From a virus, in IMG/VR virus record IMGVR_UViG_3300021964_000016: a DNA stretch of 64,000 bases. One strand, written 5' to 3'. Shown piece by piece: positions 2,023-15,348 of the stretch. Made by a program: the position numbers and the translations under genes. Numbering within the stretch: position 1 is the first letter of the stretch; the number at the start of each line of letters is the position of its first letter. Below the pieces are notes generated by a model. That model had not been told where the DNA came from and made no database searches. It was given only the letters and a program-made list of their open reading frames with translations.

Positions 2023-2083
2023 ATTATCGCTGAAAATCAGTACAAAGTAAAGTAATAAAAAGTTCTTAAAAATCAACAACTTA
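2023..2083 (-). promoter_or_regulatory. Sigma70-type early promoter with upstream IHF-like box (copy 2)
   Basis: Minus strand: TAAGTTGTTGATT ... TTTACT-N17-GATAAT. Confidence 0.75.
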
Positions 2084-2618
2084 GAATGAAGTTGACTATC
2101 TCCTGTGTGTCAGAGGGAGTTTCATGACGCATCTCAATGACGCATCCTTTCTCCTCCCCGAACAGGGTCTGCTGGTCGCCGAAACGCTCAAGGATGTTGG
2201 CGCATTTGGTGCGGCAAGTCTGGATGAATTTCTCAGACTGGTCGGATCCTCGCTCTTTATATCGGCGTTCACGTTCAGCGGTCGATACAGTTAGGTGGAT
2301 AATGGTGAGGTTGTCGCCGCATGCTTCGAAGAAACCTGCGTTGTTCAAACGATCACCTTCGCCGACGATGAGTTCGTCGGGTTGAGTGGAGATCCACTCG
2401 ATTGCTTTGGGGGCAACTGCCATGCTCAGACGATCAGTACCACTGAAAGTCTCGCCTTCCTCATACTTGCCAAGGATACGGACAGTACCATTCACGTGAG
2501 TGTCAAGAAGGTCAATAGGTCGATCTTGCTTCCACTCACCACATTGAGTCTTCATAAACTCTTTCATGATGGTGGACTTGCCAGTTCCAGGAATGCCAAT
2601 AAGGTAGATCACTTTCAT
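2073..2618 (-). CDS. P-loop nucleotide/DNA-base kinase (5-hmU DNA kinase-like)
   Basis: N-terminal Walker A GIPGTGKST, GTDRLSM, GEGDRL and a lid-like RERRYKERGS. Lies two genes from the amino-acid:DNA transferase. Confidence 0.75.
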   Translation of the reverse strand: MKVIYLIGIPGTGKSTIMKEFMKTQCGEWKQDRPIDLLDTHVNGTVRILGKYEEGETFSGTDRLSMAVAPKAIEWISTQPDELIVGEGDRLNNAGFFEACGDNLTIIHLTVSTAERERRYKERGSDQSEKFIQTCRTKCANILERFGDQQTLFGEEKGCVIEMRHETPSDTQEIVNFILSC

Positions 2619-2845
2619 TGGTTGGTGAATCTCCCGAATTCCATAATAAAGTTCTGTGCCATGATCTCTTTTTCAAAGTAAAAGGAATGTTGGTATATGT
2701 TGGTAAAAGATTTAAAATGCCAAGACTCTTTGCCCATTAATCTCTTGCACCAATCCTTTCCTTCTCGCTCAAGGTCGCTGTGCAAGGTGACTTCAAATCC
2801 AGGCATCCAACTATTCTTGTAATCGAATATCTGTTGTGGGGTCAT
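2615..2845 (-). CDS. Hypothetical protein (76 aa)
   Basis: Translationally coupled (ATGA overlaps) to both neighbours. Confidence 0.7.
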   Translation of the reverse strand: MTPQQIFDYKNSWMPGFEVTLHSDLEREGKDWCKRLMGKESWHFKSFTNIYQHSFYFEKEIMAQNFIMEFGRFTNQ

Positions 2846-3813
2846 ACAAAAAAATCCTCTAACGCATTCGTTCTGTCCTTTGGGTGAAAGTCTCCCGTAT
2901 CAAGGAACAAATTGAATAGTTCTTTGTCTATTCTGCCCTTTAACCACTCTCGATCAATCGTTTCGTTTCTAGCATCCCACATAGGTGTCCAGTCAATCCC
3001 GTCCCAACCATCTCTCTCAACCTTTCGTATTTCTTCTGATTGTCGATCAAGGTAGTATCCAAGATATCGACCATGTTTTCTACGGAATAGTTTTTTGAAG
3101 GAGCAGAGGCAGGTTTCCATGGCAAAGAAGTCTGCCTTATCAGCAACGTGAGGATATTTTAGTTTGGTTTCTTCTAACATTTCCTTTGCTTCACTTTCCA
3201 GAAATGCTATTTGATCTTTGTCCAACTTTTGATCTACCCAATCTTCTTTTCCTAGTGCGTAACATAGTCCGTTACGATGCGAACGAGAACCGCTATAGTC
3301 GTGCAACCAAAGACTATCAACATCAACTGGAATATCACAGCACTGTTTGAGCGTTTGGATATAAAACCAAGAAGAGTATCTACCAAATTTGTGAAACGCA
3401 TTAACTGTCTCCCAAACAGTATAGAAATCCTTTACGGGGTCTCCGACAAATCCTTGTGTGAGTGCATCGTGTTGTGTTCGTTCTCCAACATATCGCTGGT
3501 ACGAAACGAACTGATCTGCAAGATGTCCTTTATTCCATTTCGTGTCGGTTTGATAACGCAAGCGGCGATAATTGGTGTTATTCCAATCGCGAAGGCGATC
3601 AACGCCAACCAACTCCATGTCGGGGAATTCGTTCCAAACCACATAGGCAGTTGGCCAATAATAAGTTGTTCCATAAATCCAAGTTATCCAGAGTCTTTGT
3701 TCTTTGTTGTATTCAAAACGATCAAAGAAGTATTTAGTCATGTACAATGCAGGGTCGCAGTCTTCTATTTCAAGACTGCGACCGAACCACTCTACAAATT
3801 TTTCTTTATACAC
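2842..3813 (-). CDS. Amino acid:DNA transferase (aGPT-Pplase/AADT family, HhH-glycosylase fold)
   Basis: Motifs KFGRYSSWFYIQTL, GSRSHRNGLC, FAMETCLCSFKK and GRYLGYYLDR resemble the alpha-glutamyl/putrescinyl-thymine pyrophosphorylase family. Kinase adjacent. Confidence 0.75.
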   Translation of the reverse strand: MYKEKFVEWFGRSLEIEDCDPALYMTKYFFDRFEYNKEQRLWITWIYGTTYYWPTAYVVWNEFPDMELVGVDRLRDWNNTNYRRLRYQTDTKWNKGHLADQFVSYQRYVGERTQHDALTQGFVGDPVKDFYTVWETVNAFHKFGRYSSWFYIQTLKQCCDIPVDVDSLWLHDYSGSRSHRNGLCYALGKEDWVDQKLDKDQIAFLESEAKEMLEETKLKYPHVADKADFFAMETCLCSFKKLFRRKHGRYLGYYLDRQSEEIRKVERDGWDGIDWTPMWDARNETIDREWLKGRIDKELFNLFLDTGDFHPKDRTNALEDFFV

Positions 3814-5263
3814 TAATATCTCTCGCGTTGATATAAAATAGTTCTGAACCTTCTCCTTTGGTTAAATAAGGCAGCACATATATATGAATATCTGGGCAAA
3901 CTTGTCTTTCAACCATAAGATCTTTTTTGAAGATTGATAAGATATGATCTCTGTCTTCAGTTATCTTTTCTCTTGGCACGTGACAAACTAAAACGCCAAC
4001 TTCTCCATTTTCTCTGTAGTTTCTTATTGCCGCACTATGGCAGTTACCAATCTGTGCGACACTAAATTCACCTTTACCAACAGATTTCACTTTGTATTTT
4101 CTCTTCAAATCTTTTATGAAAGATTCTCGACTTTGCCCCATGAGTCGGTTCACACTTTGCACACCCACATACTTTGCGTCTAACGCAGAGAGAGTTTTCT
4201 CAGAAACAAGTTGTTTCTCAATTGAACTAAATGCCGACTTAATCTTCGGGTCTGAATAATAGGAATCTCGTAAAATACTTCTCAGTTTTTTCTTTGAAAC
4301 GTTGTCGTTTAGCAAGTTGAGTTTTCTTTCCCAACTAACCTCAACCCCTTGTTTTTTGATCATATCCTCTAAATGGAAATGTAAACTCTGTTTGGCATCA
4401 TGCCCATCATTGACTTTATTTGTTTGGGTGTTATTATTGACTCGGTCTAGGAACTGTCTTACTAATCCGATATCACTATTGAAGTGAATTTTATAGTCCA
4501 TTCTGACAACGTACATAGAGTCTATGCCTATCTTGTGACAAACCTCAGTGCTATGATGTCCGTTACCTATGACCTCTTCTGGCATTGAGGGATAATCGTT
4601 TACCAATAAGACTGGTTTACAGTTTGCCGTTGGATCAATACCTCTAGAACGCTCGTCTTGGAATTTTTCCGTGAGTGTTTTTATATGAGAATCATCGTGA
4701 ACCTGGTTTCTAACTTGAATATTGTATCCATTTTTGATTTTTAAATACAAAGTTGAAACCATCTCTTTTTCTTTATTACTCTCATCATAATAAAAATTTT
4801 CTAATCTGGAAAGTATTTCTTCTGCGCTTTGCTGCTTTCCGACTTTGTAGTTCTCGACATCTTCTACGATTGACGCGACTGTGTCACGAACTTGTTTAGT
4901 GTCATAAGAAGTCAAGTCATACTCGCCCAAATCTAATCCGCTACCGTTTGATTCGTTATAAAAAGTTTCACGTCGTTTTGCATTCAGAGCTTGCAATACC
5001 CTTGTCTCAACTAACAGTGCGTGACCCGTGAGCATAGGAGATCCGTCTGATAATTGGTTCCAGTCTAAAACCCTGTCGAGGTCAGGTGAATCGTTCAAAA
5101 AATTGCTAGTTTTACAAGAACCCACATAAGCAGAATTTATTTCTTTAGTGTCTAACCCAAAATACTTGTGCCCAAACCTTGTTGAGATAGGGTTTGTGTT
5201 ACAGGTCAAATAAACGCCGGAGGGTTTTGACAAAAAGGGATTACTGTTTTGTTGATACGTCAT
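3806..5263 (-). CDS. Seg-type GIY-YIG-like N-terminal domain fused to a ParB/Srx-like domain (putative free-standing endonuclease)
   Basis: GVYLTCN...KYFG...AYVGS...ETRVLQALNA...FYNESNG follows the Seg GIY-YIG pattern, then IQVR...KPVLLV...IGNGHHS (ParB-like). Start reassigned to ATG 5263 (SD AAGGA). Has its own promoter. Confidence 0.55.
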   Translation of the reverse strand: MTYQQNSNPFLSKPSGVYLTCNTNPISTRFGHKYFGLDTKEINSAYVGSCKTSNFLNDSPDLDRVLDWNQLSDGSPMLTGHALLVETRVLQALNAKRRETFYNESNGSGLDLGEYDLTSYDTKQVRDTVASIVEDVENYKVGKQQSAEEILSRLENFYYDESNKEKEMVSTLYLKIKNGYNIQVRNQVHDDSHIKTLTEKFQDERSRGIDPTANCKPVLLVNDYPSMPEEVIGNGHHSTEVCHKIGIDSMYVVRMDYKIHFNSDIGLVRQFLDRVNNNTQTNKVNDGHDAKQSLHFHLEDMIKKQGVEVSWERKLNLLNDNVSKKKLRSILRDSYYSDPKIKSAFSSIEKQLVSEKTLSALDAKYVGVQSVNRLMGQSRESFIKDLKRKYKVKSVGKGEFSVAQIGNCHSAAIRNYRENGEVGVLVCHVPREKITEDRDHILSIFKKDLMVERQVCPDIHIYVLPYLTKGEGSELFYINARDISV

Positions 5264-5302
5264 AATAACTATCCTTACAATTAAGTTACACAATACAGAT
5301 GT

Positions 5303-5363
5303 ATTATGCTATAACCGTTAATCAAAGTAAAATATCGAAAACCCCTGTAGAATCAACAACTTA
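5303..5363 (-). promoter_or_regulatory. Sigma70-type early promoter with upstream IHF-like box (copy 3)
   Basis: Minus strand: TAAGTTGTTGATT ... TTTACT-N17-CATAAT. Confidence 0.7.
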
Positions 5364-5903
5364 CAGAAACCCTTCCAGTCCAAGGGGTTCGTCAGCGAAT
5401 ACTTCAACACATCCTCCCTTGCCTTTTTTGTGTACTGCTTCATAGATCGGTTTATTTTCTAGACTATAATCGCCGTCAAAGAAGGTGTCACCAGTAATCC
5501 GAAACATAGATAATTGACACCCACTCTTTTGCTTCCCGAGCATAGTGAACCCAATTCGCTCGTAGAACTTTACAGCGTCAGGTTCAGCGGATACTCTAAA
5601 ATACAAAGCAGCGTTCTGTCTCGCAAAGCGGAGAGAGTCCTCGCAAAGAATACGACCAACCCCCTTACCTCTATGTTTAGCAAAGGTGTGAAGAAGTTGT
5701 AGGTTTGCTACTTTTGGGGAACGTTTGCTTATTGTTGTAATGATTGCACCTAGAAGAGAATCATCCTCATCCCAAGCACCTATACAAAAACTCCATTGCT
5801 CCTGCATATTTGCCTTGGCGACAAAAGTTTTTGCAAACTTGTCAGCAGGATCATCGGTTATTGCGTTTTTAAATTGTTCAGCAGAACATTCACGCAACTT
5901 CAT
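5361..5903 (-). CDS. GNAT acetyltransferase
   Basis: Acetyl-CoA motif A HRGKGVGRIL and motif B AVKFYERIGF. Confidence 0.9.
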   Translation of the reverse strand: MKLRECSAEQFKNAITDDPADKFAKTFVAKANMQEQWSFCIGAWDEDDSLLGAIITTISKRSPKVANLQLLHTFAKHRGKGVGRILCEDSLRFARQNAALYFRVSAEPDAVKFYERIGFTMLGKQKSGCQLSMFRITGDTFFDGDYSLENKPIYEAVHKKGKGGCVEVFADEPLGLEGFL

Positions 5904-6765
5904 GAAATTCTCTTTTCTTCTCTCCGCGAGACTTATCGTACTTTGTATTCATCCAACCTTTATACTCTCCTGGATTCCAAACGAAAGGAGGGAAGTTGAA
6001 GTTTCTAGAATCTAGGATCTCTTCAACACTAGGTCCGTCATTCAGAGCAGCATCAATAAATGCTTCAGCAAATATAAACTGATCTTCAATCTGTTTGCGA
6101 TCAGTTGTAGACCTGAAGCAACGGAACTCGATAGTACCAGTGTGCTTCATACAATAGGTGTTGATTGCATGGCGGAAAGGGCGACCCATTGAAACACCGT
6201 CCTTACCTGCTGCATGAAGTTTGATGAAGTGATCAAAATCTTCTGCAAGGTTTATGATGTTGTCACACATATAATCTGGCATTAGTCGACCGCCATCATA
6301 CTTCAAGTAAGTCTTTGAACCTTTGAGTATTTTCATCTCTGGTCTCTGACCAAATTGGTAACAAGACTCAACGGTTAGTTCTTGATTCTCTTTTATGTAT
6401 GCAATCAGTCGCTTTAAACCGTCAACATCTTCTTTCAGTCCAGGGACATAAACATGAAGGTGTCCATGATTGACGCAAGAGGCAGATGGTTTGTCTCCAT
6501 TCGCAACAAACAAATCATGTATCTCCATGATTCGATCTACTTGTTGTTGCCAAGTGCTTGTAGGTTTTGTATTGACTTCTCCACCGACAGGTGGTTCTAA
6601 TCCAAGAGGGTCGCAAGCAACAAACCTGTATGGTTCGTGAATGTTCACAATATCCGTTTCTGCATGTTCCCACGATCCAAGGTGCTCTGGAATTTCCAAA
6701 GTTCGGTCAATGTCACCCCATTCAATCTCATATCCATAAGTAAAGTCTTTTGGATTATAATTCAT
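5890..6765 (-). CDS. Putative amidoligase (glutamine synthetase/COOH-NH2 ligase fold)
   Basis: TYGYEIEW, GEVNTKP, HGHLHV and GTIEFRCF motifs. Coupled to a class II GATase. Confidence 0.8.
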   Translation of the reverse strand: MNYNPKDFTYGYEIEWGDIDRTLEIPEHLGSWEHAETDIVNIHEPYRFVACDPLGLEPPVGGEVNTKPTSTWQQQVDRIMEIHDLFVANGDKPSASCVNHGHLHVYVPGLKEDVDGLKRLIAYIKENQELTVESCYQFGQRPEMKILKGSKTYLKYDGGRLMPDYMCDNIINLAEDFDHFIKLHAAGKDGVSMGRPFRHAINTYCMKHTGTIEFRCFRSTTDRKQIEDQFIFAEAFIDAALNDGPSVEEILDSRNFNFPPFVWNPGEYKGWMNTKYDKSRGEKKREFHEVA

Positions 6766-7433
6766 TGCAAGTCCTCCAGGTCAGGGTCGAAGAATCTCCT
6801 ATCTTCGTATAACCCACCATAATTACTGTAAGTGTATTTCACAAGAGGTTCGCATTTTTCTACATGACCTTCGATGCGAGACCTTCTAATTATATCTTCT
6901 GTTGAAGCAAAGATAAGACCGTTATCTCTTGGTGCCATCCAAAGAGGACGTTCATGATTTCTCCAACCATGTAGAACTCCATCTTCTATAGCGACGCATG
7001 CCATACTTCGGTGTTTGTAAACCTCAAGAGGAGTATCACCTGCCTCAATACATCGAAGTATCAATTCAGAATCATTTAAAGTCTCTGTTTCGTATTCCCA
7101 AATGTCTGGGTCTTGAGAGATAACTCCGTTGTGTGCGATAGAAATTTCTTTGCCTTGAAACGGTTGATTGTAACGTAGATCCGAAGTAGAGTATCGAGTA
7201 TGCCCTATACACAATAGAGTATCTCCGTCAACCCAATCTTCAACCGTGGTATGTCTGCCAAGGAAAAGGTAAGAGGAAGTTGGTTCTTTAATTGTATTGA
7301 ATTTACCGTCTTTGAAAAAGGTGACGCCAGTGGCATGTTTCCCGCGAATCATTGATTCTAAGAAAAGGTTACTAACTAATCCGCAATCAGCAGGAGTAAC
7401 ATCAGTGAGGTATACACCAATCACTCCGCACAT
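6762..7433 (-). CDS. Class II glutamine amidotransferase (Ntn hydrolase)
   Basis: N-terminal MCGVIG (catalytic Cys2), RGKHATG, IGHTRYST, AHNGVI, NDSE. Confidence 0.9.
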   Translation of the reverse strand: MCGVIGVYLTDVTPADCGLVSNLFLESMIRGKHATGVTFFKDGKFNTIKEPTSSYLFLGRHTTVEDWVDGDTLLCIGHTRYSTSDLRYNQPFQGKEISIAHNGVISQDPDIWEYETETLNDSELILRCIEAGDTPLEVYKHRSMACVAIEDGVLHGWRNHERPLWMAPRDNGLIFASTEDIIRRSRIEGHVEKCEPLVKYTYSNYGGLYEDRRFFDPDLEDLQ

Positions 7434-8833
7434 TAAAAGAAATCCTCTAATGAACCAGCAACTTCAAATGCTTTAGGATGATACTGACGAACCATCGACT
7501 CGCCGCCTTCAACAGTCAACCAATCATACCACTCTTGTTCGTCCCACATGGAAGGCGATACACCATTCCAATATGGACGCCACAGTGGGTGTTCTTCATT
7601 CTTGCGGCGAGCGTCAACATAGGCACGACGCAGGTGCTCATACTCCCAACTACCCAACTTCGCCATATCCTCACGGAAATAAAATACGAGAGACATGCGC
7701 ATCAGGTCATCTTCACCAGTATCAGGTGCTTCGATTGGAGTGTTACCGTGGATAACTCGCATGTTGTCGACGAGCAACAGGTCACCAGGTCGGACATTAA
7801 TAGCAGCACGAACTTCAGGGCAAACGAGGTATCCGCCTTTCCAGTTTTTCTTGCCATCACTGATTACCGTCAAGTTAGAATAACCTTCGTTCAAAGAACC
7901 AGCATCGCGATGGCATGCCATACGAGCATTGCGATCTTTGGTGGTAGTATTGACAGTGATTGTGGTGAAAGTAGTATCTTCGCCAATCAGAAACTTTGGG
8001 TCAACTTTATCCGCCCATTTCTTTTGACGAGAATGACGAACAGGGAGTAATTCTGCGAAAGTTTTTTCTAGTTTCCTTGCGAACGGATAGCACTTTTCAA
8101 ACGTTTCTCTATGGTGATCAGTATACGCTGTAGCGCGACCATAAGGTATGCGAGGATAACGACCATAGAACCCAGCGATACCACTCCAAATAGCAGTGGC
8201 ATAAGAAGTATCTGAAATAAAATCTGTTTTAATTTTTTTAGCATATGCTTTTGCCTCTTCAAGAGGCATGGACTTCAATTTCTCCTCTAGTTTAGGGAAG
8301 AAATTTTTGTAGTCTCCGAACTCTGGTTCCACTTTGGTGCGTAACCAAACACCACCGCGAATCTCATCCTTATTTATATTTGCAAATTCAACGAGTGGAT
8401 CTGAACCATCGATACTCGGTGGTTGTCCTTTTGCATACCAATCAAGTACATTAGATTGGTAAATAGTCACCCAATCTCTCCCGCCCTGAGTTTCTTCTCT
8501 TGGACCTGCTGCTAGACCACGGTTATTTGATTCTACTGCTGCACCATACAAACCCTCAAAAGCACCGTCTTGTTCTTCTTGAGTGAAAACATTCTTACGA
8601 AACTTAAAAGCAATAAGATCTTCATCATGTGTTTCTTCAGTTATATCGCTAGAAGGAAGATAAAAGTCTGTATCCTCTTCTATTAACAAGTCGTAAGAAG
8701 TTTCGTCCGCATAAGTACCAAGAACAGCATCATCCGATTCAAGAAACTGTGCGACGTAAACATCTTGACCTTGATCGCCTTTGTATTTCTTCCATTGGCG
8801 ACCTGAAATATTAATCAATTCCATGAAGAACAC
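7433..8833 (-). CDS. TET/JBP-family 2OG-Fe(II) dioxygenase
   Basis: HxD (ACHRDAG), distal His (IHGNTPI) and RMSLVFYFRE match the phage TET/JBP signature. The start may be ATG 8824. Confidence 0.8.
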   Translation of the reverse strand: MFFMELINISGRQWKKYKGDQGQDVYVAQFLESDDAVLGTYADETSYDLLIEEDTDFYLPSSDITEETHDEDLIAFKFRKNVFTQEEQDGAFEGLYGAAVESNNRGLAAGPREETQGGRDWVTIYQSNVLDWYAKGQPPSIDGSDPLVEFANINKDEIRGGVWLRTKVEPEFGDYKNFFPKLEEKLKSMPLEEAKAYAKKIKTDFISDTSYATAIWSGIAGFYGRYPRIPYGRATAYTDHHRETFEKCYPFARKLEKTFAELLPVRHSRQKKWADKVDPKFLIGEDTTFTTITVNTTTKDRNARMACHRDAGSLNEGYSNLTVISDGKKNWKGGYLVCPEVRAAINVRPGDLLLVDNMRVIHGNTPIEAPDTGEDDLMRMSLVFYFREDMAKLGSWEYEHLRRAYVDARRKNEEHPLWRPYWNGVSPSMWDEQEWYDWLTVEGGESMVRQYHPKAFEVAGSLEDFF

Positions 8834-8993
8834 CGTTCACATATATCATACTATCTACCATCGTGTATTTGTTCTTGTTAGTTACCAATGAATAACCGTT
8901 AAAATCAAGAACCTTTTCTTTTCCTTTATCTTGTATTTCTTTCTTCAACTCTACAAGAGAGTTATACCTTTTTCTTTTTAACTTGTGCACCAA
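8811..8993 (-). CDS. Small basic hypothetical protein
   Basis: 60-aa ORF filling the gap in the operon. Confidence 0.6.
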   Translation of the reverse strand: MVHKLKRKRYNSLVELKKEIQDKGKEKVLDFNGYSLVTNKNKYTMVDSMIYVNGVLHGID

Positions 8994-9000
8994 TTATAAC

Positions 9001-9510
9001 CTATTTTCTTTTTTTAGTCAAGTATTCGTTCCCGTGTGAGGCATGTGGACCATTGGCATCAACATAGTGGAGGAAAGACTGATATACAAAGTCAGCAGGG
9101 TTCTCTTCTCTCCAATGCTCAACATCACAACCACGATAAATCACTGCGTCTCCTTGTTTCATCAAAACAGAACCTCCCTCCCAGAAAAACTCCCAAGGAA
9201 CTTGCACGTTTTTTAGGTTTATGGTAACTGAAACTTCGCAAGAAGGTCTATCGGCATGACGGCGAAGGATATTATCTTTTTTATATATCCTACAATAATC
9301 ATATGTGGGTACCAATTCTATGCCAGTTATTTCAGACATCTTATCACAACAGTCTTCGAGTAAGTCCCAGTGTAACCCATACCATGCCCAAGAATTAGGA
9401 ACTTGAGTATCGTCTGTCCTAGAAATCACCTTATTATCGTCCATACGAGAAGCGTGCTTCTCAGCGACTTCTTTCTCTATAAAATTCGGAACATAAGTTG
9501 CTAATTTCAT
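9001..9510 (-). CDS. Small 2OG-Fe(II) oxygenase
   Basis: RHADRPSCEVSVTINL, GDAVIYRG, HWRE, FLHYVD. A family common in marine T4-like phages. Confidence 0.8.
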   Translation of the reverse strand: MKLATYVPNFIEKEVAEKHASRMDDNKVISRTDDTQVPNSWAWYGLHWDLLEDCCDKMSEITGIELVPTYDYCRIYKKDNILRRHADRPSCEVSVTINLKNVQVPWEFFWEGGSVLMKQGDAVIYRGCDVEHWREENPADFVYQSFLHYVDANGPHASHGNEYLTKKRK

Positions 9511-11225
9511 TTCTTGATCTTAGAGAAGTTTTTATCTTTGACGAATTCTATTTTAGCGTCAAACTTGCCATCTAGAATATCACCCTTATGAGAAATAATA
9601 AAGACGTTTGTATCATCTCCAAGGGTATGTATTATCTTCATTAGGTTTTCAATACCTGCTTCGTCAAGTGAAGAGTCGAAGGTCTCGTCCAGTATCAAAA
9701 GATTTGTGCTGATCGAGTTCTTCATCTTGGCAACTTGACGCCAAGTAAAGAGAAGTGCTAAGTCTATTCTCTGTTTCTCGCCTTCAGAGAAAGAATCGTA
9801 AGAAAATGAATCACGGTGGCGAGAACGTATTGTTTCTGAAAAAGATTCGTCTAGGTCAAAGTGAACATAGAAGTCAAGAATAGACAAATACTGGTTGACC
9901 AATTTGTTGATCACTGGAAGGTATTGTTTAATGATCTTGGTTTTGATACCAGTATCTTTTAGCATCTCTGATATGACAGTATTGTATGCTGCCTGATCAT
10001 TCTGTTTATTTTTCGTTTGCATCAATTCATGATATTCTTTCACCAGAACATCGTAGTCGTCGTTTGCTTTTGCAAGATCTGACTTCTCGTCACTAAGATC
10101 TTTTATGTCCCATTCAAGTTCTTCAATATCATATTTTATCCTTTCGATGTTTTCATCGTTATCAAACATCTTTCGACTAACTTCAACCAGTTCTTGTGAC
10201 TTTTCTACCCAATGATCTAATTCTTTTGTTGCTTCTGCTTGTTTCTCTGTGATTTCAGTAAGAGATGATTGAAACTCTGACGCTGAGACTTTTGCTTGCT
10301 CGAGTTTACTCTTCTTGAGTTGTTCGTCGATGTCTTGCTCGCAGGTCGGGCACGTTTCGTTTTTCTCATAGAATTTGGTCTCTTTTACCAATGCTTTTAT
10401 TTTAGTGAGGATTTCAGTATTAGAATTCTGTAATTCTGAAACCAAAGAGTATGCATTTTTGCGCTTTTCAGCAGTATTATCAGAAAACTCTTGAAGATAC
10501 TTTCTTTTCTCGTTATTGTCCTTTTGAAGATCGTCAATCAAATCCTGCTTCTGCTTGATCTGTTCTTCAATCTTTTTCTTTTCATCATGTTTTATTTTAG
10601 ATATATCACGGATGTACTTTTTTTGTGCTTCCGTTTTGGTTTCGTTTATTTCAATGTCGTGTAACGTTTGATTTATTTTCTCTCGTAACGTAGCATTCTT
10701 TTCTTTTAGAAGAGAATTCATTTTAGAAAAAACGTTAATGTCTAGCAAATCTTCGATAACTTCTCTTCGATTGAATGCAGACAATTGCATGAAGGGTATG
10801 AACGAAGAAGAACCAAGAACAACAACTTGATGGAAAGTTTTATGATTTAGTTTAAGTATGTTCTGTTCAAGAATCTTCTGATACTCTTTGTTGTGTGAGT
10901 TTTGGTTCATAAGAACCCCATCAGCATAGATCTCAAACTTTACTGGTTTTAATCCTCTAACAACTTTATATTTTTTATTACCAATAGAGAAATCTACTTC
11001 AACTCTCATTGCCTTTTGGTTTACAGAATTAACCAGTTGCCCTTTGTTTATTCCTCTATGCGGTTTTCCAAATAATGCGTATGACACGGCGTCTAGCATT
11101 GTAGACTTACCAGAACCATTCTGCCCCACAATCAACGTGTGGTTAGCATTATTCAATTGTATTTCTGTCCAATTGTCGCCAGTAGAAAGAAAGTTTTTGT
11201 AACGTATAGATTTAAAAATTATCAA
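9507..11225 (-). CDS. gp46: Recombination endonuclease ATPase subunit (Rad50/SbcC-like)
   Basis: GQNGSGKST, coiled coils with CPTC zinc hook, FSEGEKQRID, LILDE. Confidence 0.97.
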   Translation of the reverse strand: MIIFKSIRYKNFLSTGDNWTEIQLNNANHTLIVGQNGSGKSTMLDAVSYALFGKPHRGINKGQLVNSVNQKAMRVEVDFSIGNKKYKVVRGLKPVKFEIYADGVLMNQNSHNKEYQKILEQNILKLNHKTFHQVVVLGSSSFIPFMQLSAFNRREVIEDLLDINVFSKMNSLLKEKNATLREKINQTLHDIEINETKTEAQKKYIRDISKIKHDEKKKIEEQIKQKQDLIDDLQKDNNEKRKYLQEFSDNTAEKRKNAYSLVSELQNSNTEILTKIKALVKETKFYEKNETCPTCEQDIDEQLKKSKLEQAKVSASEFQSSLTEITEKQAEATKELDHWVEKSQELVEVSRKMFDNDENIERIKYDIEELEWDIKDLSDEKSDLAKANDDYDVLVKEYHELMQTKNKQNDQAAYNTVISEMLKDTGIKTKIIKQYLPVINKLVNQYLSILDFYVHFDLDESFSETIRSRHRDSFSYDSFSEGEKQRIDLALLFTWRQVAKMKNSISTNLLILDETFDSSLDEAGIENLMKIIHTLGDDTNVFIISHKGDILDGKFDAKIEFVKDKNFSKIKK

Positions 11226-11446
11226 AGTGGAAATCTCTCTCTCAATTCTTCGAATCCGCCAATATACTCACCGTCAACATAAACCTGAGGAATTTTTAAA
11301 TTCGGTTTATATTTTTCGTCTTTCTGAAACTTTGTTTTGCTTAGATCTATAAAGAAAGTCTTAAATCCAAGTGCCTCAAAATGCAGTAGGCACCTTAAAG
11401 TGTGTCCACACCATGCATACCCAACAACATGGATCACAAATCTCAC
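11222..11446 (-). CDS. Glutaredoxin-like protein
   Basis: WCGHT active-site position and IPQVYVDGEYIGGFEEL. Confidence 0.8.
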   Translation of the reverse strand: MRFVIHVVGYAWCGHTLRCLLHFEALGFKTFFIDLSKTKFQKDEKYKPNLKIPQVYVDGEYIGGFEELRERFPL

Positions 11447-12504
11447 GCAATCTCCATTGATTGTGCTTCTGTCATTAAGTCCGAAACCTCTTTTTTAATC
11501 CGTTCTTTATCTAAAAGAGTTTCAACGTTATCGATGTAAGATCCAAGTAAGACACTAGTATCTTCTACATCCAAACCTTCATCAGAAACGTTTTCTCCCA
11601 GAAACTCTGAGAAGTCTTCCTGTACTTTTAGATCATAAATTTCTCTTTGTTGTATACGATCCAAAAATCTATCAAATGTGAAAGGGTCGTTTTTATTAAT
11701 AACAACGACTTTAACAAATTTTTGATCGAGGTGATCAATTTCAAGTTTGTTATAGTCAGCAACTTCATCATCGTAATAAATTTTTTCATGAAGAGTTAAT
11801 GGGTTTTGTACAGGGATCAGTTCTCTTGTCTCTGTATCGAGTATGTGGAAATACTTTGGGTCGTTTGCATCGTTCCAAAAGAATTCCATCTGGGAACCAA
11901 GATAGTGAATATTGTCTTGACTAGACTTACAATGATAGTGTCCTGAAAGCACCAACTCAAATCTACGAAGGTTGTCAGCAGACATACCATGAGTACAAGG
12001 AACTCCGCGAATCATATCAAACCCGTTTAATTCAAAGTGTCCTCCGATAACATCTGCTTTACAGTTTACAAGGAAATCATTTATCTCTTTTTCATTATCT
12101 TGACAAATCCAAGGAACTAGACCAACCTTCAACCCATCATAATCAAGGACGCTTGGGTCCATCACAATATTAACTTCGTTCATGTAATGACCCAACAACT
12201 CTTTTAAAGAATTTAGGTCATTCGTATTTTTGTAATAAGTGTCATGATTACCTGGGATTATATCCATAGTAATTCCATCAGAACGAAGTCTCTCAAGAAA
12301 AACCTTCCGATTGCTATTCAGTGCTTTAAAATTGATGAAACGACGATGTTCATAGTAATCACCAAGATGGATGATATGCTTGATGTGGTTTTCTTTTAGA
12401 TAAGGGAAGAACACTTCAGTATAGAAGCGTTCTTGATAATCAATAAAGATGTCTGACGAATTACGAATACCACAATGAGTATCGTTTAAAATTGCTATGC
12501 GCAT
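11443..12504 (-). CDS. gp47: Recombination endonuclease nuclease subunit (Mre11/SbcD-like)
   Basis: DTH, HLGD, GNHD and SGHYH phosphoesterase motifs. Confidence 0.97.
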   Translation of the reverse strand: MRIAILNDTHCGIRNSSDIFIDYQERFYTEVFFPYLKENHIKHIIHLGDYYEHRRFINFKALNSNRKVFLERLRSDGITMDIIPGNHDTYYKNTNDLNSLKELLGHYMNEVNIVMDPSVLDYDGLKVGLVPWICQDNEKEINDFLVNCKADVIGGHFELNGFDMIRGVPCTHGMSADNLRRFELVLSGHYHCKSSQDNIHYLGSQMEFFWNDANDPKYFHILDTETRELIPVQNPLTLHEKIYYDDEVADYNKLEIDHLDQKFVKVVVINKNDPFTFDRFLDRIQQREIYDLKVQEDFSEFLGENVSDEGLDVEDTSVLLGSYIDNVETLLDKERIKKEVSDLMTEAQSMEIA

Positions 12505-13092
12505 TTATTCCTCGAGAAAATCTGAAAGGTCTGAATCTATAGAAACTTTTCTTTTGTTCGAAAGGGTCTTTTTATATTGCTTTATTTTTTCGTCTTTTTC
12601 TTTTACGTCGTCAATCCTTCTACGAAGATTGTCAACAAAGGATTGAACTGCTTTTGCAACTTGAGGATCTTCATCTGGGTCGACCATAAATTCCTCTATT
12701 GCGGATTCTGATAAGAACTTCAATTTAACATCCTGCTGCTTCTTTTCTTTCTGAATACGGCGAAGGAAAGCATACCAAGAGATCTGAGTGAAATATCCAA
12801 ACGCATTTGGTTTACCTTTTCGAGTCGCCGCATCGATATCGTAGTTCTTTACAGCACGAAGGCAGTTCTCTACAGCATCCATTACCATCTCTTCACGATA
12901 GGTGTAGCGAACAAAGTTAGACTTGTGAGAAAGACCCTCTGCGATCTTAAGGAAACACTCTGCAACATAGTTCGGCATAACTGGTTCAGGGTTGTTTTTC
13001 GTTTCTGCTTCCCGTACAGATTTTACATAGTCAACCACTGCTTGCGAGAAATCAGCATTATTAACATAATGCGGGCGTTCATTAGGTTTCAT
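12505..13092 (-). CDS. gp55: Late transcription sigma factor
   Basis: HYVNNADF, NFVRYTYREEMVMDAVENC, NAFGYFTQISWYAFLRRIQKEKKQ. Upstream of gp47. Confidence 0.96.
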   Translation of the reverse strand: MKPNERPHYVNNADFSQAVVDYVKSVREAETKNNPEPVMPNYVAECFLKIAEGLSHKSNFVRYTYREEMVMDAVENCLRAVKNYDIDAATRKGKPNAFGYFTQISWYAFLRRIQKEKKQQDVKLKFLSESAIEEFMVDPDEDPQVAKAVQSFVDNLRRRIDDVKEKDEKIKQYKKTLSNKRKVSIDSDLSDFLEE

Positions 13093-13150: not shown

Positions 13151-13539
13151 TCTTCTGTAAGAAGTCCTTTCTTGGAAGGAAATGACAAAACATTGCTGGT
13201 CTTACACTCAACCTCAGATCCGCCCTTTCCTAAGTGCTCTTGTATGGAGACTACAGAGTTTGAGTACTGCTCGACGACTGTGTCAGAGGGGGTATGAATT
13301 GAGATAACAGAGAAAGGATTGATCGAAACCGTCCTTTCCAAATCTTCAGTATATTGAATATAAGGACGAAGTATATAATATGACTTACCATTATTATCAT
13401 ATTCATCTTCTATATTCTCAATAGGAACCATATCTAAAGCGAAGTTAACAATGAAACTGTCTTCAGATTGTTCAATAACGCAGGCAATAACATCTTGCCC
13501 ATTACAAAGTTTAAATTGTACTATATCTTCTTTTTTCAT
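13147..13539 (-). CDS. Conserved hypothetical protein downstream of uvsW (Sm-like fold suspected)
   Basis: QFKLCNGQDVIA N-terminus. Position between uvsW and gp55 is usual for marine T4-like phages. Confidence 0.7.
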   Translation of the reverse strand: MKKEDIVQFKLCNGQDVIACVIEQSEDSFIVNFALDMVPIENIEDEYDNNGKSYYILRPYIQYTEDLERTVSINPFSVISIHTPSDTVVEQYSNSVVSIQEHLGKGGSEVECKTSNVLSFPSKKGLLTED

Positions 13540-15002
13540 AAAACCACCTTATGTAGTTCGAAGTCAAACTTTTCTTTGGTATACATTTTGATCCTTTCCC
13601 CAGCATGCTTCAGGGTGAAGTTTTGCCTAGAATGATACTGCATATCATCGGAAAGATCGTATAGTTTTGTGTCCTGTCCGTTATCTGCTTTCCTCAATCC
13701 TCTTCCGATTGATTGGAGGACTTTGACTTGGGATTTTGAAGGACTAGCAAAAATAATGTTATGCAGATTCCTAATGTTAATCCCAGTACTAAATGTACCA
13801 AGAGAGGCGACGATAATTGCTCCGTCTTGTTTCTCCACGATACCTCGTATTGCTTCGCGGTCTGAGGTATCAGTCCCACCGTGAACATAATAGACTTTAT
13901 CGCTTTGTACTTCTTTAATCATTTTGTGAAGTATTTCTCCGTGTTTCTCCACGAACTGAAAAAGCACGAGAGTATTCCCCTTTTGAGTTACTGCCAAATT
14001 TCGTATAAACTTATTCCTAGGTTCATATGTCACAAGAAAATCTACTTCTTCTTGATATGTCAACTCTTTATTCATTATACGGGTTTCTTCTGAATAGTCA
14101 AGTAATAACATGTCTATCTTGAGTTTAGCGAGGGTTCCTTTGTCCTGTAGGTCTCTAGTAAAAGTAACCCTTTTAGTGGGACCAAATAAACCTTCAAGAA
14201 CAAGTTTGTGTACCTGAGACCCGTCTAGCGTTCCTGTAGTTCCGAATCTATACTCTGCTTCCGTACACTTATTCATTAAGGTGGTGAGGGACTTTGCTTT
14301 AAATAGATGACACTCGTCGCCAAACACACAACCAAACACATCAAACCAATCTTTGCCTAGTCTGTAAACCGATTGCCAAGTTGTGATCACTATTCTTTTG
14401 TCTGTTTTCTTGTCTTTGCCTGAGTAGATTATGTGACATTCATTCTCTGCATCAAACCCATAATCTTTAAAATCTTTGTACATCTGTTCAACCAAAGAGG
14501 TCGTGGGCACTACAATCAACACAGACTTATCGTTGTTCTCCAGATACCAACGCATAAGATTGTATATTATGAAAGATTTGCCAGAGCCAGTAGGAGAGAG
14601 CAGCACTGCTCTCTTTCTCTGTATTCCATGCGTGATAGCATCGTACTGATAATCACGAGGAGGAAATGGCATTTTCCAAAGTGCTTGCGAGGATACTAGT
14701 TTCTGGTGATCAACTTTATTAGTCGCATTCGGTAGTCCATAAGGCGAATGCTCCATTTGCATATGGTAGTGACGGTCTGCTGCAAAACGACAAAGTTTAG
14801 CATACAACCCAACATTAAGTTCGCAGGTTATGGGATTAAACAAACGAATCTTACCGTCCCACTGTTTGCGACGATAAGAAGGAATAAATTTATATCCAGG
14901 AACATAGAAAGAAAAGTATTCTTTGAGTTCTGCGCGAACAGAAGGATCACAGACTACTGCCATCATAGAATGATTTTGCATTTGAATGGTTATATTAGAC
15001 AT
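13536..15002 (-). CDS. uvsW: RNA-DNA/DNA-DNA helicase UvsW
   Basis: PRDYQ, SPTGSGKS, GDECH, FGTTGT, QSIGRGLR. Start reassigned to ATG 15002 (MSNITI), because the longer ORF overlaps the upstream gene. Confidence 0.96.
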   Translation of the reverse strand: MSNITIQMQNHSMMAVVCDPSVRAELKEYFSFYVPGYKFIPSYRRKQWDGKIRLFNPITCELNVGLYAKLCRFAADRHYHMQMEHSPYGLPNATNKVDHQKLVSSQALWKMPFPPRDYQYDAITHGIQRKRAVLLSPTGSGKSFIIYNLMRWYLENNDKSVLIVVPTTSLVEQMYKDFKDYGFDAENECHIIYSGKDKKTDKRIVITTWQSVYRLGKDWFDVFGCVFGDECHLFKAKSLTTLMNKCTEAEYRFGTTGTLDGSQVHKLVLEGLFGPTKRVTFTRDLQDKGTLAKLKIDMLLLDYSEETRIMNKELTYQEEVDFLVTYEPRNKFIRNLAVTQKGNTLVLFQFVEKHGEILHKMIKEVQSDKVYYVHGGTDTSDREAIRGIVEKQDGAIIVASLGTFSTGINIRNLHNIIFASPSKSQVKVLQSIGRGLRKADNGQDTKLYDLSDDMQYHSRQNFTLKHAGERIKMYTKEKFDFELHKVVL

Positions 15003-15348
15003 TTTCCCAAACAGCATCAGCGGTAAACCGATAACTTCCAATAAATTCGTATTTATCCCATTCCGAAGGAGAGATAATACTAAGGAAATGTCCACCTTCT
15101 TTTCTGTATAGGTGATATGTCTTACCAACTTTTGGTTCAAATCCATATGTGGACTTGTAAACAATGTCGGTTTCGTTAGCGAGTTTGACTAAACTTTCGT
15201 ACTGCTTCTGTAGTTCTTGAAACTTTCCTTCAAAGAAGTTTGCTGCTTGCGCACCTCTTTCGCTTTTGAAAAGATCTACATCAGGTAATACTATTGCTGG
15301 TGCTGAGGAAGTTATTCCATAAGGAAGTAAACTAGAACTATCAACCAT
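14995..15348 (-). CDS. DUF2452-like protein
   Basis: LPYG...APAI and FEPKVGKTYHLY...FLSIISPSEW pattern. Confidence 0.7.
   Translation of the reverse strand: MVDSSSLLPYGITSSAPAIVLPDVDLFKSERGAQAANFFEGKFQELQKQYESLVKLANETDIVYKSTYGFEPKVGKTYHLYRKEGGHFLSIISPSEWDKYEFIGSYRFTADAVWENV

Follow-up and report, generated by a model that had tools for sequence, protein, structure and literature searches.

The C-termini of the T4 polymerase gp43 and of gp55 and gp33 are clamp-binding epitopes that are freely exchangeable (review PMC2988020), and the RB69 clamp has been crystallised with the last 11 residues of its polymerase (PMC2988020; structure 1B8H). In T4 these ends read ASLDFLFG (gp43), SLDFLYEAND (gp55) and NTLDFLL (gp33). 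Peptides of this kind occur in IMG/VR virus record IMGVR_UViG_3300021964_000016, of which a stretch of 64,000 nucleotides (the window) is analysed here. Its modification operon encodes three unrelated enzymes that carry them: a TET/JBP-type 5-methylpyrimidine dioxygenase (TET), an amino acid:DNA transferase (AADT) and a GNAT acetyltransferase. The last 6–7 residues of these enzymes are likely to be sliding-clamp docking peptides of the T4-type gp43/gp55/gp33 kind. Three unrelated operon enzymes end in the clamp peptide of the phage’s own polymerase, so the clamp is probably the platform from which these enzymes modify phage DNA that has just been replicated. As in T4 and RB69, the tails are extreme C-terminal, have the form [S/T]-L-[D/E]-x-Phi-F, follow a variable stretch, and are succeeded by nothing, by one residue or (in gp55) by an acidic stretch; the phage also encodes a gp45-family clamp, and its own gp43 and gp55 bear the motif. 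Unlike in T4 and RB69, the carriers are base-modifying enzymes (TET, AADT and GNAT here; TET-associated glycosyltransferase (TAGT), GT1 glycosyltransferase and Dam methylase in relatives) rather than replication or transcription proteins, the consensus is LE[DE]FF instead of the T4 form LDFL[FY], and clamp binding is predicted from sequence.

The concept of clamp-tethered modification has precedents in DNMT1 with PCNA and T4 alpha-glucosyltransferase with gp45. PIP-box proteins such as DNMT1 are tethered to PCNA, which is likewise a trimeric sliding clamp, and thereby mark new DNA. Tethering of a modifier to a trimeric clamp by a short linear motif would be common to both cases, whereas the motif, the clamp family member and the chemistry differ, which makes this an analogy with no motif homology. 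T4 alpha-glucosyltransferase binds gp45 (Sommer et al. 2004, cited in PMC13216743), and co-purification has been confirmed (PMC13216743). Like the contact predicted here, this one is between the sliding clamp of a T4-type phage and an enzyme that modifies DNA after replication. The T4 alpha-glucosyltransferase ends in FKEQFDIITK and the beta-glucosyltransferase in FKKAIDL; both enzymes and T4 Dam are without a polymerase-type tail, so the gp45 contact of the alpha enzyme is of another kind. In contrast, a portable tail here marks several enzymes of one pathway.

The closest described gene sets are those of ParB-dependent phage thymine dioxygenases (5-methylpyrimidine dioxygenase (5mYOX) clade C1), which neighbour glutamine amidotransferase (GATase), P-loop kinase and AADT genes (PMC13229309). 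ParB partners of related dioxygenases have been reported to activate these enzymes on double-stranded DNA (PMC13229309), and published 5mYOX pathways pair Ploopntkinase3-type kinases with AADTs. The window has the same gene set around TET/JBP, no adjacent C5-methyltransferase, and a putative ParB-like gene in the operon. It differs from clade C1 in that the ParB-like protein is very divergent (430–495 amino acids) and in that the island lies in a T4-like genome next to gp45. In the papers on phage TET pathways that the analysis covered (including PMC13229309), clamp genes appear only as neighbours and clamp tails are unmentioned.

Terminal peptides of the operon and the polymerase

The operon with tails is the stretch from the left window end up to gp46 (Table 1). 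An earlier reading of the letters without database searches (the sequence-only reading) had quoted the C-termini of TET, AADT, GNAT, GATase and gp55, and all are present as written on the minus strand. The motif lies 0–1 residue from the stop codon in TET, AADT and GNAT. Had the phage’s own gp43 ended in a different motif, that reading would have given up clamp docking. This gp43 was found by walking along public contigs identical to the window; the window kinase is present on public contigs residue for residue. JGI contig Ga0222715_10000225 (59.6 kb), which is 99.96–100% identical to the window across a 12.6-kb overlap, encodes a family B polymerase of 839 amino acids with the end ISLEDFFG. 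The six residues SLEDFF are thus identical in gp43 and TET. Codon usage differs between the two tails, so there was no recent DNA copying of the tail. A DNA-level tail cassette was rejected on this difference, and the 15 bases common to TET and AADT do not suffice for a judgement.

The phage also encodes a clamp of the family on which the sequence-only reading had the enzymes dock. The clamp of the phage’s own contig is a PF09116 gp45-family gene (L132:14497-15171, with gp45 of this phage also at L136:4851-5525; L numbers denote loci and contigs of the comparison), with a gp44-like AAA protein and Phage_clamp_A as loader genes. The gp45 gene lies near the modification island, and on contig L002, which is near-identical, the clamp resembles the RB69 and T4 gp45 structures (1b77/1b8h) with E 2.7e-22.

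Tails were scored with the pattern L-[EDSGT]-x-Phi-Phi inside the last 8 residues, and expected counts were taken from internal 10-mers and from shuffled tails. Three of the 58 window proteins match (TET, AADT and GNAT, all in the operon) against 0.07 expected. The amidoligase-like protein, an open reading frame (ORF) of 495 amino acids and the structural genes are without a tail, which agrees with the sequence-only reading. Four matches among 184 proteins, against 0.15 expected, were obtained in phage C48C1 (Kyanoviridae), the nearest complete genome judged by TET similarity; these are gp43, a Dam methylase, TET and one baseplate protein. Among 52 further genes of contig Ga0222715_10000225, gp43 is the sole match.

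Relatives comprise 73 IMG/VR loci fetched by a TET search. Conservation of the tails, on which the sequence-only reading had staked its case, is clear among them. The motif occurs in 43 of 44 distinct TET C-termini, with L and the last F invariant over 43 TETs of 45–95% identity. Entropy is 0–1.8 bits within the motif compared to 2.1–3.1 bits at the preceding positions -2 to -8, and the motif is the exact end in 18 TET tails and is followed by one extra residue in 25. AADTs have G-L-[ED]-x-Phi at the C-end in 27 of 29 distinct homologs, and both exceptions are broken genes. The GNAT tail is a 10–11 residue extension past a conserved GGCVEVF and is seen in marine relatives of 69–99% identity (GLEDFF, GLTSFFN, SLSSWF). 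A profile search of an independent library of 1.84 billion cluster representatives gave 583 proteins at E up to 1e-30; within the best 150 of these 583, 19 of the 20 proteins whose alignment extends to the C-terminus of the profile bear the motif and the twentieth ends TVDDFFA. Short TETs of ~300 amino acids (catalytic core only) in this library have no tail.

Polymerases end alike wherever gp43 is on the same contig or genome as the relatives’ loci. The ends are TLEDFFG in C48C1, SIEDFFG in L009/L012, TLEDFFA in L043, SLDEFFA in L046, TLESFFDD in L051, SLEDFFG in L047/L050/L058, TLEDFFND on the contig of L039, SLDCFFE on the contigs of L029/L045, TLDSFFA in Stenotrophomonas phage DLP_6 and DLSSLFD in Caulobacter phage Cr30, both of them culturable. 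Several fragmentary contigs gave no gp43, which is uninformative because these records are 24–59% complete. The Cr30 TAGT ends DLSKLF, which is an anecdotal likeness to the gp43 end of the same phage. The C48C1 gp33 homolog ends NTLDV, which fits only in part, so this clade offers no support from gp33.

Tail carriers, tail-less relatives and look-alikes

A scan of 1117 called genes found the tail, besides TET, AADT, GNAT and gp43, only on gp55 and on four families that all adjoin TET: TAGT (PF20691), GT1 (PF00534), a second GNAT family and a 117-amino-acid protein. A Dam-type (D12-class adenine) methylase next to gp43 in C48C1 ends STLDAFFG. Proteins of at least seven unrelated folds, besides the polymerase, bear the tail peptide, every time at the extreme end. 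No pattern match was obtained in the distinct C-termini of amidoligase, GATase, gp46, gp47, UvsW, gp45, gp44, gp62, gp41 and UvsX, and 1 of 21 distinct kinase C-termini fits.

Tails also track with possession of the gp45 clamp, as clamp docking would predict. The TETs of Pelagibacter podophage HTVC112P, Nonlabens siphophage P12024L and Synechococcus phage S-CBWM1 are tail-less, and the complete genomes of these phages gave neither a gp43 homolog nor a PF09116 clamp; DLP_6 and Cr30 gave both. None of 35 TETs on HTVC112P-like (podovirus-type) contigs is tailed, none of these contigs has gp45 or gp43, and a ParB gene adjoins TET in 29 of the 35.

Several other C-termini in these phages recall clamp ligands. 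In P12024L (L083:3667-4425, 4427-5062), the TAGT and the N6/N4 methylase beside TET end SNQLEIF and QSQQTLF, and a TAGT in L089 (+ strand, frame from 3998), 80% identical to that of P12024L, ends SNQTQLF. The terminal Q-x-x-Phi-F of these proteins, three examples in all, recalls the bacterial beta-clamp motif. Nothing like it was found in HTVC112P-like islands. The S-CBWM1 TAGT (L084:5207-6061), which stands beside a tail-less TET in a genome in which no gp45 or T4-type gp43 was found, ends HELEDLLP; this could be a relic or the ligand of another partner. Homologs of gp32 have a subterminal clamp-like peptide in their acidic tail, DDDSLDFFKKLADE and DDTLSYFAQMAAED (L037:15676-16608; C48C1 112190-113137), and the equivalent subterminal peptide of T4 gene 32 is TDLDDLLNDL. 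The replicative helicase gp41 of the window phage ends ISIEGFKL, and gp41 homologs in L047-L060 and L065 retain a terminal F-x-G-F-K-[FV], which is a conserved end motif distinct from the tail. Two gp26-like baseplate hub proteins (PF12322) end AGIDDFF (L076:17098-17805 (-), C48C1) and STLSDFFTLG (L037:19554-20255 (-)). This resemblance to a clamp tail probably belongs to the fold and is retained at 30% identity.

Proposed clamp docking and its alternatives

The TET AlphaFold model has a predicted local distance difference test (pLDDT) score of 82, and its top Foldseek matches are NgTET1 (E 3.6e-9), CcTet and TET2; the enzyme is probably a thymine dioxygenase. If the tails dock on gp45, the clamp loader of the phage would place the trimeric gp45 ring around phage DNA that is replicating or nicked, and the tailed enzymes would bind the hydrophobic clamp site and then ride along the duplex, travelling with the clamps. 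TET would most likely convert thymine to 5-hydroxymethyluracil, the tail-less kinase would activate this base by phosphorylation and AADT would add an amino acid. GNAT, and perhaps the amidoligase and GATase as well, would tailor the attached group. The tail of GNAT, a clean add-on beyond the fold, fits an enzyme that acts on DNA. Modification could take place at the fork, on clamps left behind it, or jointly with the ParB-like protein. Only phage DNA would have a loaded clamp, so modification would be confined to phage DNA. From the tails and their distribution we infer binding, the sequence in which the enzymes act, their chemistry and any coupling to the fork.

Several findings count against this proposal. 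The motif is short (5–6 residues) and the pattern was drawn up only once the tails were known, so independent data were needed. Tails are missing from the kinase, though its family is tied to DNA hypermodification pathways, and tethering would thus be unnecessary for some steps; absence of a tail says nothing about the substrate of an enzyme, of which the kinase family is an example. More distant GNAT orthologs from other clades end at GGCVEVF without a tail. Fine co-variation of enzyme tails with the gp43 tail of the same genome is not significant (P 0.13; 0.58 without Cr30). The C48C1 gp26-like baseplate protein ends GIDDFF within its Pfam domain, so the pattern is not fully specific and is alone no proof. 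The share of alpha-glucosylation in T4 is mostly explained by promoter and translation strength and not by gp45 binding (PMC13216743), so clamp contact may have little effect on how far modification finally goes.

The shortness of the motif and the post hoc pattern would suit an origin of the tails by chance or from the composition of acidic and aromatic C-termini. Conservation and enrichment count strongly against such an origin: the excess over expectation recurs in the window and in C48C1, the L and the last F never vary among 43 distinct TETs, and ten other families are without a match, which leaves chance scarcely credible. The tails could also have a role other than docking, such as a signal for stability or degradation, a plug for autoinhibition or an element of the fold. 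The final residues of the TET model form a short helix (pLDDT 64) that comes after helices, with no long disordered linker, which would agree with such a role, as would the end of the baseplate protein. A non-docking role is nevertheless highly improbable, given that the same hexapeptide is terminal on the unrelated folds listed above and on the polymerase and tracks the gp45 gene, and that GNAT orthologs function with or without what is a clean add-on.

Tails could instead bind another shared partner (the ParB/Srx-like protein, gp32, the clamp loader or each other) and assemble a modification complex off the clamp. The operon holds a putative ParB/Srx-like gene, ParB partners of related dioxygenases are activators (PMC13229309), and gp32 homologs have a similar subterminal SLDFF or TLSYF. 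Set against these points, the tail equals that of gp43, and in T4 and RB69 the C-terminal peptide of gp43 is known to bind the clamp. Islands that lack a ParB-like gene (e.g., L034-L038, L051, C48C1) also have tailed TET and TAGT, and the ParB-associated TETs of podovirus-type contigs are tail-less. A partner other than the clamp is therefore improbable, and docking on gp45 is the preferred reading.

A stronger form of clamp docking, in which gp45 is a required loader or activator that chooses the DNA and the enzymes are efficient only on duplex with a phage-loaded gp45 ring, is possible but less likely than not. Published clade C1 work reports that some phage dioxygenases are inactive when expressed alone in E. 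coli, and the purified enzymes were C-terminally His-tagged. A required activator would account for this inactivity, and gp45 and ParB-type clamps would become loaders that replace or assist one another. Phages that use the host beta clamp may follow a similar logic (P12024L TAGT, NQLEIF; methylase, QQTLF). More generally, tail docking would give a concrete reason for the inactivity of some phage TET-type enzymes in heterologous assays. If the tails dock on gp45, the clamp would be a hub for chemical masking of DNA in addition to replication and late transcription, and a simple rule would explain how post-replicative hypermodification reaches all new phage genomes and phage DNA only. The tail could then serve as a cheap sequence marker to spot DNA-acting enzymes among the many transferases of T4-like phage genomes.

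Other operon proteins and the gene map

Two further ends that the sequence-only reading had linked to clamps do not hold up. It had called the GATase tail its weakest case, and none of 30 distinct GATase C-termini fits the clamp pattern. PDLEDLQ was rejected as a clamp tail: homologs do not retain the motif leucine, and the end belongs to a separate motif in which only DLQ or DYQ is conserved. The kinase QQTLF, described as subterminal, is present at 2160-2174; it is not really subterminal because it lies 30 residues short of the C-terminus. It falls within an 8-residue insert that is missing from most of 27 kinase homologs, and only the nearest relatives have the insert, in variable form (RQTIF, AATLW, PTIL). 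A match to the bacterial beta-clamp motif QL[SD]LF was rejected on its position in this non-conserved insert. The clamp motif occurs in none of 12 distinct C-termini of the amidoligase-like protein, which has its own conserved end, EKKREFHEVA. The C-termini of GATase ([ED]DLQ) and of the amidoligase-like protein (GEKKRE[FY]H[ED]VA) are strongly conserved and may be contact sites, either mutual or with another partner.

The 495-amino-acid ORF had been taken for an inserted gene. Divergent homologs hold the same position in relatives, and inserted foreign DNA was therefore rejected. Positional homologs of 433–438 amino acids lie between GNAT and AADT (L002:8425-9726, L006:10330-11634, L010:13431-14747, L012:14413-15720). 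The ORF aligns with them over its full length at 17–21% identity, compared to 50–98% for neighbour genes, and blastp against the L012 protein gives E 6.5e-10. The motif I-x-D/N-G-N/H-H is common to all of them, as ILDGNHT in the homologs and as VIGNGHHS in the window ORF. The homologs have weak PF02195 (ParB_N) matches under the cut-off (E 1e-4 to 2e-3), and the window protein has no Pfam or PHROG match. Only its middle domain was compared structurally because the model is poor (pLDDT 40). Residues 166-289 of the model match PadC, KorB, sulfiredoxin and pNOB8 ParB-N with Z 6.4–6.8, and the top seven fold matches for the middle of this low-confidence model are ParB/Srx folds exclusively (Z 5.2–6.8). 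The ORF is a putative fast-evolving ParB/Srx-like member of the operon, which would fit the published ParB-associated dioxygenase subclass, with membership in that subclass putative. Its N-terminus (VYGW, ten residues, YVG) resembles the GIY-YIG motif.

Every gene in the window (1-64000) is on the minus strand, and gp46, gp47, gp55, UvsW and then a module of head and tail genes follow one another as in T4-like marine myophages. The operon gave no match to GenBank phages by megablast. It includes a 76-amino-acid ORF, listed between AADT and the kinase.

Table 1. Operon genes, terminal peptides and neighbouring genes of the window (aa, amino acids)
Feature	Position	Strand	Remarks
P-loop nucleotide kinase (Ploopntkinase3)	2073-2618	-	Pfam PF18751, E 2.3e-17
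AADT, 323 aa	2842-3813	-	Pfam PF18724, 75.7 bits (cut-off 26.2)
AADT C-terminal tail ALEDFFV	2845-2865	-	protein end NALEDFFV; shares LEDFF with own gp43
Putative divergent ParB/Srx-like protein, 495-aa ORF	3806-5293	-	positional homologs in relatives
GNAT acetyltransferase, 180 aa	5361-5903	-	Pfam PF13673, E 2.9e-13
GNAT C-terminal tail GLEGFL	5364-5381	-	protein end PLGLEGFL; extension beyond conserved GGCVEVF
Amidoligase-like protein	5890-6765	-	weak Pfam PF12224, E 6e-4, under cut-off
Class II glutamine amidotransferase (GATase)	6762-7433	-	Pfam PF13522; ends PDLEDLQ
TET/JBP-type 5-methylpyrimidine dioxygenase, 466 aa	7433-8833	-	Pfam PF12851, E 2.5e-15, 56.5 bits (cut-off 34.9)
TET C-terminal tail SLEDFF	7436-7453 (codons)	-	protein end AGSLEDFF; equals first six residues of own gp43 tail SLEDFFG
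169-aa protein	9001-9510	-	between TET and gp46; PHROG 2954 match (label ‘ferrochelatase’), E 1.8e-43; no Pfam match
gp46	9507-11225	-	T4-like gene order
gp47	11443-12504	-	T4-like gene order
gp55 late sigma factor	12505-13092	-	homologs in L001-L006 and C48C1 (annotated late sigma factor)
gp55 tail DLSDFLEE	12508-12531	-	protein end SDLSDFLEE; D-L-S-x-[FW]-[LFM] and acidic residues kept in L001-L006 and C48C1 homologs
UvsW	13536-15164	-	T4-like gene order

Homologs of the 169-amino-acid protein between TET and gp46 are limited to the nearest relatives. A 772-amino-acid protein, whose start lies at 1-1740 of the window, and a MoxR-type ATPase (AAA_3/AAA_5) stand between the operon and gp45. 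Beyond the window in the same phage, a ketoacyl synthase (PF00109/PF02801) and a GT2 glycosyltransferase (L136:11959-13886) lie between the clamp and clamp-loader genes, which is unusual cargo in a T4-like phage.

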